Under the pieces are notes generated by a model. It saw only the letters and a program-made list of their open reading frames with translations. It did no database searches and was not told where the DNA came from. From Neolecta irregularis DAH-3 (taxonomy: Eukaryota): DNA of 55,613 nt. This document shows, piece after piece, positions 13,114-35,505 of the stretch. The stretch's first letter is position 1. Every line of letters starts with the position of its first letter. The position numbers and the translations under genes are program-made. The stretch is taken from contig LXFE01000132.1 in NCBI GenBank assembly GCA_001929475.1, forward strand, positions 1 to 55,613. Reading direction: 5' to 3'.

Positions 13114-15360
<2,247 letters not shown>

Positions 15361-15490
15361 GGGACGGGGTCTGGGAGTATTCTGAGCTTGCTAGGCATTG
15401 TTATAACATTTATTTGTGTACATGATGGTAATAGAAGAGATTGACTAGAGGTAGCTGGAGCAGATGGGAGCTAGCCGTCGTGGAGGACAG

Positions 15491-17262
15491 CTAGCCGTCG
15501 TGGAGAAGGACCGGCTTGAGGACGTGGGTGTCAAACTCTACGAACCAGCGGGCGCGGTGGTCGTCGTCGGCAGGAAGGGCGGGAGGCAGGCGGAGCGGGG
15601 CGGGCGGGAGATCCGAGTCCGAGTCGGAGGGCGAGTCTGGGTCCGAGGACGGGGCCGGGTGGACGATGCCGCGGGACAGGTCGATGCCGCGGGGGCTGTC
15701 CTCGTCGTCGACGACCTCGACGCCGGTGCGGATGCCGACGATGTCGAGCATGCGGGCGGTGGTGCCGCCAAAGACGATGACGGAGAGGACGACGACGACG
15801 AGGACGGTCGCGCGCAGGGTGCTTGCGTGCGGGCCCTGGATGCCCGCGGACAGCGCCACGCCGACGGCGCCGCGCAGGCCGGCCCAGAAGAGCATGATCT
15901 GGTAGGACTGCGGCAGGCGGTCGCGGCGCGCGAGGCGGTTGAGCAGGCGGGCGAGCGGGAACACGGCGGCATAGCGGGCGGCGACGACGGCGGCCACGGC
16001 CACGACGGTGAACAGCGGGCGGTACACAAAGTCGACCTGCGTGAACAGCGAGATGCCCAGGTAGATGAACACAAAGTTCTCCGACAGCCGCGCGAGCACC
16101 TGCAGCAGGCGGCGCACGGTGTGCTGCGCGCGGCGCGACATGTTGAGGTACGCATAGTGCTTCATCGTGATGCCGCAGAACAGCAGCGACACGATGCCTG
16201 GGTCAGCCAGCGCCTGTCTGTCTGGGGGGGGTACCCGACATGTGGCAGCCGTTGGAGAAAAAGTACGCCGCATACGCCAGCAGCACGACCAGACACGACT
16301 CGAGCTGCGGGTGCCGCCGCAGCTGCGTGTGCTTGAGCAGCAGCGCTGTGCCGATGCCCGCCGCGCAGCCGATCACCAGCGATCCGCAAAAGTTGAGCAC
16401 AAACACGCCCGCGCCCTCGACCGCACTCAGCGCATGCATCTGCGTGCCGTGGTACTGCTGCACCGTCCCGCCGTCAGCCCCAGCCGCCGGCAGCGCTCTA
16501 CGTACTCAAACATCACGATCGACACCGCGTCGTTCAGCAGCGACTCGCCAAAGATGATCGAGTACAGCTGCGGGTCCACCTGCCGCCAGTCAGCCCGCCC
16601 CCGCCCTGCTCGGAGAAGAAGAAGCCGCCTGCCTTGCACTGCGTAAAGATCGACAGCACCGTCACCGGGTCCGTCGCGCTCAAAGTCGCCCCCACGGACA
16701 TCGCGTCCAGGAACGACATCCGCACAGCCTCCAGCCCCGTCAGGCTCCACGCGTACACAATCGCCCCTATCACTATCGCAGAGATAAACGTCCCCAGCAG
16801 CGCAAACGTCAGGATCGTCCCGATGTTGCGGAAGAACAGCGCCTCCCCGTCAGCGGTGCCGTGCTGCACGTACCTGCCGCAGCTCAAACCCAGAATTCAG
16901 AATAATAGGCGGCAGCAGCAAATTGAAAAAGTACGAGTAGTGGAACGACACTTTCTCCTGGATCCGCAGCCCCGGCGACACCCGGATAATCAGCCCCACG
17001 ACCATGCCTGCCGTCAGCTCCCGCCCCCATCGCGCGCCCCGCACCCGCAAAGATAGACACCACGCTTTCGTGCACCGCCCGTATCTTGCGCCGCTGCAGG
17101 TAGTAGCTCGAGAATAGCGCAACAATAAGCAGTGCTACAAGAATGAAGAGCGCCCACGACGAATACAGCTCCTCAGTCACAGGATCAGACGGATCCTCAA
17201 TGTCGATCTCCGTTCCTAATGTGAGAAACGCACTGGGAACAGTCCATACTCTTGAATGGCAT
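15491..17262 (-). CDS. NHX1: Endosomal/prevacuolar Na+(K+)/H+ exchanger, 6 introns including one GC-AG and one GT-GG
   Basis: SSWALFIL, FFNLLLPPIILNSG, SATDPVTVL, IFGESLLNDAVSIV, SGIVSLLFCGI, LFWAGLRGAVGVAL. Confidence 0.93.
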
Positions 17263-17309
17263 GCTGTTGATCGGTGGGGTGCAGACCCTGAATCGTTGTA
17301 GAACGGTTC

Positions 17310-17317
17310 CACGTGAC
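17310..17317. promoter_or_regulatory. CACGTGAC E-box (Cbf1-type bHLH site) in NHX1/NDUFB3 divergent promoter
   Basis: Exact motif in a ~100-bp intergenic region; the same motif occurs at 20461-20468 and 26898-26905. Confidence 0.5.
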
Positions 17318-17364
17318 TTGTCTTGGTCCCATGCATCCGACACGCCGACACCGTGCATCACTAC

Positions 17365-17566
17365 ATGTCTATTCAAAATGACCCCTGGGCAAGACGGTAC
17401 ATCTCCCAGTATCAGTCCTAACCCAAGAAACGCATGGAGAACAAAACATTTATTCTCACCAGCATCGAGATTTAAAAGCGCGCTCCCGGGATTCGGAATC
17501 GCCTCTGGCCTATTTGCTATATACTGTCTCGTTGAATTCGTATCGTCGTATCGCAACCACGAGTGA
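17365..17566 (+). CDS. NADH:ubiquinone oxidoreductase B12 subunit (NDUFB3-like), one 31-nt intron (17397-17427)
   Basis: Spliced MSIQNDPWARRNAWRTKHLFSPASRFKSALPGFGIASGLFAIYCLVE. Confidence 0.88.
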
Positions 17567-17598
17567 ATTAAAGTAGAGCCAAGATAGATGTAGTCTTA

Positions 17599-18681
17599 TT
17601 ATATACTCTGCAACAACGCTTGTCTTTCACTTCGCGACGATATACTGCTCAAGTTGATCGCTCGAATTAATAGATCTGCTCTATACCTCCCATCTTGCTC
17701 GTCGTCACACCCGTCAGCCTTCTTCGCAATAAGATAAACGCCAGCAAACGTCGATAAACATCCTCCAATAAATAATTCCTTTTGATAGACATCGACCCTA
17801 GAAAACTCGTCGTATAGAATCCCGGAACCGACAATCACGCTCAGCGTGAACAGCACAAACTGGGTAGGCACAACAACCTGCTAATCAGCTACATCCCAAT
17901 ACACCTACCGTAGATTCGAACCGCGACAGTGCCCTGTTGAGAAACTTTACCTGAATCACCGCAGTAACAACCATCACCATCATCAAAACATAACTTATCC
18001 GATACGTAAACAGTAGATATGTTTGGCTTGAAAGCAGACAGGATAGCCCTTTGGTGGACAACACAGTAAACTGGCCAAAGATGGCTACAGTCCCCAAATC
18101 GAATAGCATATTCCGGTTCCCAACAAGACCAGACAACACTGCAAGAACCACACCGAAAAACAGCATAATCAAGGCGTATATAACGAACCCAGGAGACCGC
18201 AGTGCGGCAACAAGTTCATCTGGTCCAACCTGTCGTCAACATACGAAAAATGAACACTTGCCATTCGCTCCTCCCCACTGGACAGTACAATGACTACTGC
18301 ACCCAGACACGCAATTCCAACGCCAAACACCTGACGCGCTGAAATCGATTCATCCAATACTACAGGCGCAAATACCACGTTTGCAATCAACCCTGCAATA
18401 CCCAAAGGAGCCACTATCGACGCCTTTGTAAATCCGTATGCAACAAAGTTGCCCTACCGTCAATAACCACCCAACCACAAGAATACAATCTCGCCAATCA
18501 GCATAAGCAGAAATGCAAACCACCACGACATGGAAATATAGTACTGCCGACTAGATGCAAGATGAGACCGCCGCTGCAGCGTCAACGACAACGAGATGAC
18601 GATGTTTGACACAACGGCGATAAATATTCCGAGTAGAGTAAAGACAGATTGGTCCGCGCCCGTATCGGCCACGCGGTTCAT
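17599..18681 (-). CDS. NIPA-family magnesium transporter (3 introns, one GC-AG)
   Basis: WW..LLMLIGEIGNFVAYGF, APLG, FTVLSTKGLS, QVKFLNRALSRFEST.VVPTQFVLFT. Confidence 0.88.
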
Positions 18682-32436: not shown

Positions 32437-33346
32437 TTAAGAAGCAAGGCCATCTGCAGATTGTCCTCCTGCCTGCATCTCGTGCTGCCAGACGGGAATA
32501 CTCGGTATTGCAGCCGTTGTTGGGGATTCAGGAACAGCAGACGATGAATTGCCTATGGGAAGAATCGGGGAAACATTAGTTCCCTGGGATCCTATAGGAC
32601 GGCCTCGATTCACAATGAGAGTCTTGAGACTCTTTAGTTCAGTCTGCAAATCAACAAGTGCTGCTTCTTGGTTGTCTTTGTGCTTCTCAAGAGCCTAAAT
32701 AATCAGAAAATAGCTGGCAGAGGTGAACCTCGGGAACAAGAGCTTTTAATGAATTGATGTCATGCTTGAGATTTCGGAGTTCTGTTTCTGAGCTTTCTGT
32801 GCATTTCCTGAGATTATCCATCACCCGATCCAAGTCTCTCAGAGCTTCGTTTACTGCATTTTTCTGGTCGTCGGCATCTTTCTTGAGCTGCTCGGAGTCT
32901 TCCTGCAACTGCTTCAACAGTGACTGTGCCTCGTCAAACTGCGCGTCAATGGAGTCTTTGTCTGCCTGCAGTGCTTCTGGAGTTGGAGGTGCAATTAAAG
33001 GCATGACATAGCGCTGAGCGTGTTAAAGAAACAAGCCAAGGTTTTGTACCCTGACAAGCACAGTTAAGCCGTAAGCAACACTTCCGCCGACAACGCCCAT
33101 AATAAACCAATCTCGCCAGTCACGGCGCGGAAGTTCTGGTGGATTTTGAGCATTTGGATAATATATAGGCGAAAAAGAGGACGACTGGGAATGCGAGGCA
33201 GCCCTGGAAATGGCCTCGTCTATTTCTTCTTTAGTAAGCCTTTTCGACTCGAGAAATGCGATTCGCTTTTGGAGTGAAGCCAACTGAACTTTGGGATCGT
33301 TGAGAAATGAAACGGCGCTGGTAACTAGATCTTCGCGGATGGTCAT
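32437..33346 (-). CDS. PEX14: Peroxisomal membrane docking protein Pex14 (2 introns)
   Basis: IREDLVTSAVSFLNDPKV, FLESKRLTKEEIDEA, RDWRDWFIM, coiled coil, ELKSLKTL, IPVWQ. Confidence 0.95.
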
Positions 33347-33388
33347 ATGTATGAACTGCTTGGAGTAGCAATTTATCCTATCTCCTCC

Positions 33389-34268
33389 ATGTCAAATCGG
33401 TCAAAATCACCAGAACGTCGTAAATCAGACGACAATGATCATCGAACATCGTATCGTGATGTAAAAGATGGAAGTCGAAGACACAGAAGTCGTTCTCCCG
33501 GCATTCACAAGAACAGAGAAGACCGCCCCCGAAAACACTACCATGACCGTGATCATCGAGATTCAAGCTCTCGGCAAGACTACAAGCTAAAGGATAGACG
33601 GGACGATCGAGGAGGTGATCAAGATAGGCAGGATCAAAGAGATCAAAGATACAAAACAGATCAAAGAGATCACAGAGGTAGAACGGATCAAAGAGATCAA
33701 AGAGATAGAACAGGTCAAGGTGATCGCGGAAAATTTGATCCAAACAGGAAAAGACGATCTCCTTCTCCAAAAAGAAAATCTATCCCTGAGCCGGCCATAC
33801 CTGTTTACACAGGTTCGATGATTGAGGTTATTTGGTGCAAAAAGTACCTCACACTCAATCTGACAGCTTAGCAACGATCGTCTGGGCAAGAAAATCAGGT
33901 ATTTGTAGAGTCCGTTTATATCTGATTACCAGGGTGAAATGTAACGAGGATGATACAGTCGGCGATTTAAAAAAACTGATTGCCGCGCAAACAGGAACAG
34001 ATCATCGAAAGATCGTACTGAAGAAATGGTTTGAATCTTCCTTATAATATTTCCTGACAGCTAGGTATACTTCATACAAGGTACGCGCTGATAATCCTGT
34101 TGAGCAATTCATAATCTATAGGACCATATCAAATTGTCGGATTACGAGATCCACAACGGCATGAGTCTGGAATTGGTACATCGTGTTCATACTACCAAAT
34201 ATCTAACCGCTATAGTATTATGTATTCCCACCTCCACAATCCTCCATTACTGACAATAACAGTCGTAG
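33389..34268 (+). CDS. HUB1: Ubiquitin-like modifier Hub1/UBL5 with in-frame N-terminal RS/RD-rich extension (6 introns; core starts 33818)
   Basis: Spliced core [73 protein letters not shown]; upstream open frame of ~143 codons rich in RS/SP/RD. Confidence 0.9.
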
Positions 34269-34298: not shown

Positions 34299-35505
34299 TC
34301 ATTTCTCAACCCCTAATACTTTCGACGATGTCAAAATCGTTAAATCGGAATATTTTGAGTCAAAATGGGTTCTTTCATCCATCAAGTCTCTCGGCGTCAG
34401 TCCAGTTGCCTTCATAACAACCACGGCTATCTTCCTGATTATCCATGCTCGAGGGGGATAATCTTTGGGAAGAGATTCCTGCGTGAAATATCTCCATAGG
34501 AATTCTTCTGCAAGCTCTAATGGTCCATCGACTTTACAATCGAAGTCAATCTCTGGCTCCCCTAGGCTCCATTTTGCTCGTGCATCAGCGATGAAACCAA
34601 GTCCATCACTGGGGATATTTTCCGTTGAACAGTCGGAACTATGGTAATACAGAGTATTCTGAATTGTATCCCAACGAATGAACCCTAGGTATCCATTTTT
34701 GAGGAGATTGAAAATTTGCGAGGGTGGAATGTCATTCTTCCACGAGTTCAAGTCGTCCTCTGGTGAAATTGACATAAATGTCGTTGATGAAGAGTTATTC
34801 TTGAGATATTGTTCGATATACGTTGACAGGATAAGAAAATACATGTCCTCATGTGCTGCGCTGGGGGCTTGATATGCTTCCCGTAAGAGACGCCGAAGTC
34901 CGCGGCGAATGAATTTATTCTCAAAAGTATGTATGTTCTCTGGAAAAGCGCTTAGCAGAGTATGATCAAGCGAAAGCATCAACTGCGCTTCCGCTCTTCC
35001 GGACCAGTTTGTTAATTCTGATGAAGCAGCTTCTACCCATCGATCCGAAGACATCAATCCCGCTTCGTTGAGCAATCCCGAGTACAACGATTCATCAAGT
35101 GGCTCAGTTAATCCTTGTAGCTTTATCCGACTTGAGGTCGTCAGTAACATCCAAGTGAGTATTAGAGTACTTGAAAGCCGACCCGTTGTGCCTGTCTGTG
35201 CCTTTCTTGAGAGTAGAATTATAGCAAATGCAATTCCATCCGAAATTCATGTGGCCCCTGGATTCCTGCTGTACATATGTGCTTCTCACATCGTATCTCT
35301 CAATAACCTCAAAAGCTTTACAAGCAAGGCTGTTTAGACATTTAGTCGTGCAGTCATTCACTGCGTCTTTGAACACTAGGATACTTGGGTATGTATACGA
35401 GAAGAAATGGTGATTGGGTCTGTGGATTTTATGATGGATCTTGTCGAAGAAGGCTTCATCTGGAATCGCAAATACCAAACTGATCAATAAAGCGAATTGG
35501 AGCAT
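34299..35505 (-). CDS. Secreted protein of unknown function with Cys-patterned (PAN/apple-like) N-terminal segment (1 intron)
   Basis: Signal peptide MLQFALLISLVFA; CTTKCLNSLACKAF..NCICY; a ~40-nt GT-AG intron joins ORFs 35104..35505 and 34299..35150. Confidence 0.6.

Follow-up and report, generated by a model that had tools for sequence, protein, structure and literature searches.

A stretch of 55,613 nucleotides (nt) from Neolecta irregularis DAH-3 (GenBank assembly GCA_001929475.1, contig LXFE01000132.1, positions 1–55,613 of the forward strand; hereafter referred to as the window) was analysed with a focus on the gene for the ubiquitin-like protein Hub1, also known as UBL5, which occupies positions 33389–34268 of the + strand. 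Most likely, this gene encodes a protein of 216 residues, in which a disordered, net-positive extension of 143 residues, starting at ATG 33389, is followed by the canonical 73-residue Hub1 domain, with six short GT..AG introns in the coding sequence. The protein would belong to an extended class of Hub1 and would not be specific to Neolecta.

A canonical Hub1 domain split by short introns

The Hub1 domain comprises 73 residues and becomes readable only once short introns of 34–41 nt are removed from the + strand. All six introns (6/6) are bounded by GT and AG, and five of the six inferred introns carry a CTRAY motif 7–9 nt from the 3′ end. The start of the domain, placed by homology (MIEVI plus two bases, 33818–33834), is continuous with the extension in exon 1. 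Excision of intron 1 (33835–33871, 37 nt, CTGAC 8 nt from its 3′ end) restores the conserved CNDRLGKK. Exon 2 (33872–33898) and intron 2 (33899–33932, 34 nt, CTGAT 7 nt from the 3′ end) lead to the largest of the Hub1 exons, exon 3 (33933–34028), which carries D21 and D22; intron 3 (34029–34064, 36 nt, CTGAC 7 nt from the 3′ end) is followed by exon 4 of only 16 nt (34065–34080). Intron 4 (34081–34121, 41 nt) is the one that has no CTRAY near its 3′ end. Exon 5 (34122–34175) carries H63, and intron 5 (34176–34215, 40 nt, CTAAC 9 nt from the 3′ end), which is left unspliced in the public gene model P0001, separates it from exon 6 (34216–34221), whose 6 nt are the two Tyr codons of a di-tyrosine end. 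A probable intron 6 (34222–34262, 41 nt, CTGAC 9 nt from the 3′ end) precedes the last exon (34263–34268), made up of a Ser codon and a TAG stop at 34266–34268, in agreement with the end coordinate of 34268 given in the initial annotation. Without removal of intron 6, the frame would stay open for at least 60 further codons, to the end of the translated stretch at 34420. With the inferred introns 5 and 6 spliced out, the model protein ends in YYS, as does the Pneumocystis wakefieldiae protein P0002. Hub1/UBL5 proteins terminate in a di-tyrosine plus one residue, which replaces the di-glycine of conjugated modifiers (PMC8122580, PMC2408969).

The same annotation had named the domain as canonical Hub1/UBL5, and this was confirmed by phmmer searches against the PDB, with E-values of 9.3e-35 to human UBL5 (6ahd_A0, 73 amino acids, aa) and 1.1e-21 to yeast Hub1 (1m94). 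The Pfam family PF00240 scored 25.4 bits on the domain, a value equal to its cut-off. Other Hub1 proteins shared 69–88% identity with the domain, the upper value being that of P. wakefieldiae, and N7, K13, D21, D22 and H63 were all found at their expected positions. Of these residues, D22 has been linked to the HIND of Snu66, D21 to MFAP1, and N7 and K13 to the 5′ exon, with H63 being functional as well (PMC12830679). The same 73-residue domain constitutes canonical Saccharomyces cerevisiae Hub1 (PDB 1m94/3plu) and human UBL5 (e.g. 6ahd). In those proteins, however, it is free-standing, as is usual in the Hub1/UBL5 family, whereas 143 in-frame codons of a charged sequence precede it in Neolecta.

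An in-frame extension upstream of Hub1

ATG 33389 and the canonical Hub1 ATG at 33818 lie in one and the same frame (mod 3 = 2). This frame is free of stop codons from 33329 to 33834, the end of exon 1, and the list of open reading frames (ORFs) gives it as open on the + strand over 33347–33871; the other two forward frames contain 4 and 17 stops over 33300–33840. In mononucleotide shuffles of the extension (33389–33817, + strand), an in-frame stop was absent in 5/20000 cases, and the openness of the frame therefore exceeds what is expected by chance. The earlier reading of about 143 in-frame codons without a stop before Met 33818 is thus upheld. The accompanying statement that no intron interrupts them holds in so far as the frame is open throughout, but P0001 places a 44-nt intron at 33549–33592.

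The 143 codons are rich in R, D, S and K (R 32, D 24, S 15, K 12, P 9, G 9, Q 9; D+E 27), with a net charge of +17 and with the DQR repeats placed centrally between two terminal RS/SP patches; dipeptide counts were RS 4, SR 3, SP 4, RD 8, DR 7, DQ 6 and QR 5. Tandem Repeats Finder placed the DQR-type repeat at 33632–33725 on the + strand, either as 8.3 copies of 9 nt or as 3.5 copies of 27 nt, in both cases with 0% indels, so that every repeat unit is a multiple of three. The repeat is confined to this interval: its 4 matches in the whole window all fall there, against 0.06 expected.

A Pfam scan of the extension returned 0 families, and a phmmer search of the Neolecta extension against the PDB gave 0 matches at E ≤ 10. 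AlphaFold2 in single-sequence mode modelled the extension with a mean predicted local distance difference test (pLDDT) score of 55.6 and a predicted template modelling (pTM) score of 0.16, with one low-confidence helix over the repeats. These values fit an intrinsically disordered extension, single-sequence models being a weak guide. We also considered that the tails might conceal a HIND-like pseudo-ligand. The PDB search with the Neolecta extension was empty, and when the extended protein of Cryptococcus neoformans was compared with the PDB, only its Hub1 domain was matched, apart from one weak match to DHX15 (E 2.8); this candidate was dropped.

Similar extensions on Hub1 in other fungi

With P0001 as the query, a profile-free search of 1.84 billion representatives yielded 1464 matches at E ≤ 0.001, and several of the best 150 aligned into the extension. 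A second query, the 280-aa protein P0122 of Vanrija pseudolonga, in which an RS patch and RD repeats precede Hub1, retrieved 201 proteins at E ≤ 0.001 among 8000 scored candidates. Among the 120 of these matches that were listed, Tremellomycetes were represented by Vanrija, Apiotrichum, Kwoniella, Cryptococcus, Trichosporon, Cutaneotrichosporon, Naematelia, Papiliotrema and Naganishia, and Pezizomycotina by Aspergillus, Colletotrichum, Neurospora, Trichoderma, Chaetomium, Venturia, Alternaria and others; an extended Hub1 of the mucoralean Apophysomyces was also listed. In C. neoformans H99 the extended protein is AFR94363.1 (268 aa). Clusters of the extended form in the ESM Atlas contained 108, 82 and 126 members in Ascomycota and 50 members in Basidiomycota.

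The order of elements, from an RS/SP patch through RD repeats and a Pro/Lys-rich linker to Hub1, was seen in all but 2 of the 19 sequences that were read. The exceptions were P0233 of Spiromyces, which is arginine-poor (R 10 in the best window), and the lysine-rich P0277, which has no N-terminal RS/SP patch. The latter, from a Pseudomicrothorax dubius transcriptome in EukProt, is a complete ORF of 185 aa with a K/S/E-rich, RS-containing tail before Hub1; it may represent an extended Hub1 outside fungi, or contamination. Among 331 fetched proteins with a Hub1 motif, a set biased by the choice of queries, 214 had at least 40 residues upstream of the motif, and in 102 of these 214 the upstream part contained at least 15% R and at least 12% D+E. 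The Neolecta extension falls within the class so delimited (R 32/143, D+E 27/143). Numerous further long UBL5 records, derived from animals, plants or metagenome ORFs, bear hydrophobic or junk extensions of an unrelated kind and have the look of annotation artefacts.

The resemblance to Neolecta differs between the two main groups. In Tremellomycetes, the C-terminal domain is of the canonical type (72–73% identical to that of Neolecta) and is preceded, as in Neolecta, by an N-terminal RS/SP patch, RD repeats and a Pro/Lys-rich linker. Their tails, however, are longer, at about 170–245 residues, their Hub1 domain ends in ...LEMY, without the second Tyr and the last residue, whereas that of Neolecta ends in YYS, and three of the four tails that were read contain conserved blocks (ELSFYKK, GEVPRRFGGTREQG) absent from Neolecta. 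The non-repeat blocks in the tails of P0244, P0122, P0251 and P0259 comprise ELSFYKK, GEVP[RK]RFGG[TS]REQGVRNTMGNV and GSFKR..DPLDR, none of which occurs in Neolecta. The Pezizomycotina proteins, annotated as 'ubiquitin-like modifier HUB1' (190–270 aa), with that of Neurospora tetrasperma among them, share with Neolecta an N-terminal RSRSRSP-type patch, RD repeats, a K/P linker and the residues N7 and D22. At the same time, their domain (P0279–P0352) is divergent, being 36–54% identical to that of Neolecta, with the motif MI[IVL]V.VNDRLGTK, no Trp-Tyr at positions 47–48 and an end in ...DLEVDTGD instead of YY; this protein may be the sole Hub1 of these fungi or a paralogue. The initial guess that similar extensions occur in other filamentous ascomycetes was therefore correct, in that they are annotated in Pezizomycotina on a divergent Hub1-like domain.

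Closer relatives were not found by the searches directed at the tail itself. Used as a query, the extension matched only its own protein, P0001, among 24 candidates, and a metagenome scan for the tail gave 291 pattern matches, zero of which were confirmed by tblastn. Other Taphrinomycotina named among the 120 listed of 647 matches (102–326 aa) were P. wakefieldiae (193 aa) and Savitreella (116 aa), neither with an R/D-rich tail. Searches of the literature on N-terminal extensions of Hub1, on splicing in Cryptococcus and on Hub1 of filamentous fungi returned no description of an extended Hub1 in the parts of the papers that were examined. Judged by architecture and composition of the predicted proteins, the Neolecta gene is a member of a class of extended Hub1 annotated in many fungi, and not a device specific to Neolecta.

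Gene model and alternative readings of the locus

The locus is tightly packed. Upstream, the start codon of a divergent Pex14 gene lies at 33344–33346 on the − strand (Pex14_N at E 5.5e-17 from residue 4). Downstream, the next ORF of the − strand (34299–35150, 283 aa, no Pfam family) stops 30 nt past the Hub1 stop. With genes packed this closely, their untranslated regions should overlap. The genome of N. irregularis as a whole is compact, with 14.5 megabases (Mb) and 5,546 predicted genes (PMC5309816). Elsewhere in the window, the interval 13500–18000 is GC-rich (0.56–0.58, versus about 0.42–0.47 in other parts), and long ORFs overlap there on both strands at 15455–16372.

Several observations count against a translated extension of this kind. 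ATG 33389 is only 42 nt away from the Pex14 start codon, and a translated extension would require the transcripts of Hub1 and Pex14 either to overlap head to head or to carry very short leaders. A shared promoter of 471 nt, the distance between the conserved Pex14 and Hub1 starts, would be unremarkable in size. Zero ATG triplets occur in any frame of 33546–33817, the 272 nt upstream of the canonical Met (4.3 expected; as few in 55/5000 shuffles), which would suit the leader of a short isoform. The codon-usage score of the extension, relative to 16 long ORFs of the window, was 0.028 in frame and 0.116 in the +1 frame, compared with 0.149 ± 0.046 in frame for exons of the window; such scoring did not tell the frames of the extension apart, which is unsurprising in a low-complexity stretch.

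The character of the tail is open to objection as well. SR proteins combine at least one RNA recognition motif (RRM) with an RS domain of at least 50 residues and more than 40% RS content; the Neolecta extension has RS 4 and SR 3 in 143 residues and no RRM. Of the initial description as rich in RS, SP and RD with DQR repeats, the RD (8) and DQ (6) dipeptides and the repeats stand, but 'SR-rich' is too strong for seven RS or SR dipeptides in 143 residues. Mixed-charge domains have been delimited by a charged fraction of at least 0.7 in a 60-residue window and a positive:negative ratio of 1:0.7–1.3 (Greig et al., 10.1101/771592). The best 60-residue window of the extension stays below this, at 0.60 (20 positive, 16 negative), or 0.68 when every Ser is counted as negative; the tails of C. 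neoformans, Vanrija and Alternaria pass (0.78–0.85), and those of C. neoformans and Vanrija are denser in charge than that of Neolecta. The Neolecta tail thus resembles the RS and arginine-rich mixed-charge domains of speckle proteins in being Arg-rich with Asp and Ser, in its RD/DR and RS/SP dipeptides and in its disordered look, but differs from them in charge density, in its few RS/SR dipeptides and in having no RRM. Finally, hhalign of the Neolecta tail gave a probability of 0.5% against a Pezizomycotina profile (8 columns; 0/60 shuffled controls as high) and of 0.2% against a Tremellomycete profile (19/60 shuffled controls as high). Even the Pezizomycotina and Tremellomycete tails have just a weak N-terminal block in common (probability 27%). 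Since the resemblance is one of architecture and composition, common descent of the tails is unproven.

One alternative reading of the locus is that only short Hub1 is made, with 33347–33817 serving as a shared Pex14/Hub1 promoter and leader; a purine-rich repeat would then have produced the open frame incidentally. The main argument for this reading is the head-to-head overlap, or the very short leaders, that a translated extension would demand. The spacing of 471 nt between the conserved starts would be accounted for in this way, as would the failure of codon-usage scoring to separate the frames of this low-complexity stretch, the openness of two frames out of three over the repeat, and the tail-less Pneumocystis and Savitreella proteins among the Taphrinomycotina listed. 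It would not account for a frame that stays open in so few shuffles, for repeat units that are all multiples of three without indels, or for a peptide with the composition and layout of Hub1 extensions in many fungi, and the long leader would hold five upstream ATGs. (The four out-of-frame ATGs of the extension all lie within 33435–33545.) On account of the shuffles, the multiple-of-three repeats and the match in architecture with other fungi, we regard a short-only gene as improbable. Somewhat less improbable, though still unlikely, is the production of two isoforms, a long Hub1 from a distal start site and a 73-residue Hub1 from an internal start site by way of the ATG-free leader. The absence of ATG from all frames of 33546–33817 is a weak hint of it, but this shortage reaches no more than nominal significance, and the repeat, together with a composition free of Met and poor in T, partly imposes it.

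A further alternative retains the extension and concerns its N-terminus. The deposited model P0001 ('Ubiquitin-like protein 5', 186 aa) spans 33468–34230 and places 76 residues read in the same R/D-rich frame ahead of Hub1, in one protein. If it is correct, translation begins at 33468 in another frame and the 44-nt intron at 33549–33592 joins this start to the R/D-rich frame, giving an extended Hub1 that lacks the first 53 residues of our model. As the model on deposit, in a genome where 99.4% of gene models have RNAseq support (PMC5309816), it carries some weight. Yet its 44-nt intron has no CTRAY branch motif, versus five of the six homology-supported introns that have one 7–9 nt from the 3′ end, and its upstream frame is open for only 40 codons. 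By reading through intron 5, P0001 also loses the conserved YY end and closes with 14 unrelated residues (VHRV...), which makes it inexact in detail. An RS or SR within the first 25 residues together with an SP within the first 30 occurs in 84 of the 103 other R/D-rich Hub1 extensions; the protein started at 33389 has this patch and P0001 does not. A start at the in-frame ATG still further upstream (33347), which overlaps that of Pex14, would lengthen the protein by 14 hydrophobic residues. Because its N-terminal RS/SP patch matches other fungal extensions, the comparison favours 33389 as the better start, and there is only a slight chance that P0001 is right as it stands. P0001 probably needs correcting on these sequence grounds, to a gene model with a start at 33389, six introns and a YYS end. 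Both models join the R/D-rich stretch to Hub1, and the fusion is therefore independent of the choice between them; it is very probably real.

The extension and splice-site choice

The initial annotation had gone on to propose that the tail, as a constitutive tether to the spliceosome, makes Hub1 a candidate trans factor for supposedly relaxed splice sites in Neolecta. Yeast Hub1 does promote the use of weak and alternative 5′ splice sites (PMC12830679; PMC7615767), and the 5′ splice sites of the Hub1 gene itself are degenerate past GT (GTGCAA, GTATTT, GTTTGA, GTACGC, GTACAT and GTATTC). All six introns of that gene are nevertheless GT..AG. When Hub1 was constitutively attached to Snu66 or Prp38 in yeast, 5′ splice-site choice and the isoform ratio stayed the same (PMC12830679). 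Similar extensions are, moreover, annotated across Tremellomycetes and Pezizomycotina, whose introns are generally taken to be almost only GT-AG. The groups that bear extensions also differ widely in intron density, with a mean of 0.47 introns per kilobase (kb) in Pezizomycotina and 3.28 in Agaricomycotina, Tremellomycetes included (PMC8476143). The proposal had named a fusion widespread in fungi with strictly canonical introns as the finding that would refute it; the spread is there in annotations, and the canonicity of the introns is a matter of general background. Given the wide taxonomic spread, the six canonical introns and the yeast tethering without effect, the causal link was not borne out, and we consider it highly improbable. 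The tail should not be invoked for unusual splice sites in Neolecta.

Possible roles of an extended Hub1

If the Hub1 domain of Neolecta acts as in yeast and human, by analogy it would bind Snu66 (at its HIND), MFAP1/Spp381 and Prp5 non-covalently and would contact the 5′ exon. The extension would then act as an RS-like, arginine-rich mixed-charge tail that concentrates Hub1 in the nucleus or in speckles, in the vicinity of RS-domain proteins and RNA. Phosphorylation of RS and SP sites could tune this tail, which may also carry a nuclear localisation signal. In human cells, RD repeats and arginine-rich mixed-charge domains drive incorporation into speckles (10.1101/771592). In yeast, Hub1 remains functional when joined to the C-terminus of Snu66, Prp38 or Prp8 (PMC12830679), and since these fusions work, attachment of a polypeptide to the N-terminus is compatible with Hub1 function. 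The fusions share with the Neolecta protein a Hub1 N-terminus joined to another polypeptide, with function kept, but they are artificial, the partners are folded spliceosomal proteins and not a disordered charged tail, and the use of alternative 5′ splice sites was not raised.

A more far-reaching scenario, which we put forward tentatively and regard as rather unlikely in its entirety, is that Hub1 with an arginine-rich RS/RD tail goes back a long way in fungi: Neolecta, Tremellomycetes, Pezizomycotina and some early-diverging fungi would have retained this form, and it would have disappeared from budding yeasts, fission yeast and animals. In that case, the tail would provide a second, HIND-independent and phosphorylation-tunable route into spliceosomes or speckles, and an internal start site might also release the 73-residue form.

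Work on Hub1/UBL5 has treated it as a free protein of 73 residues that is recruited via HIND motifs. According to database models, many fungi, and now Neolecta under a better gene model, encode a Hub1 that is preceded by a long charged tail. Provided that such a tail is produced, these fungi would offer a natural experiment on the delivery of Hub1 to the spliceosome, for which Cryptococcus neoformans, Aspergillus and Neurospora are tractable species carrying the extended form.

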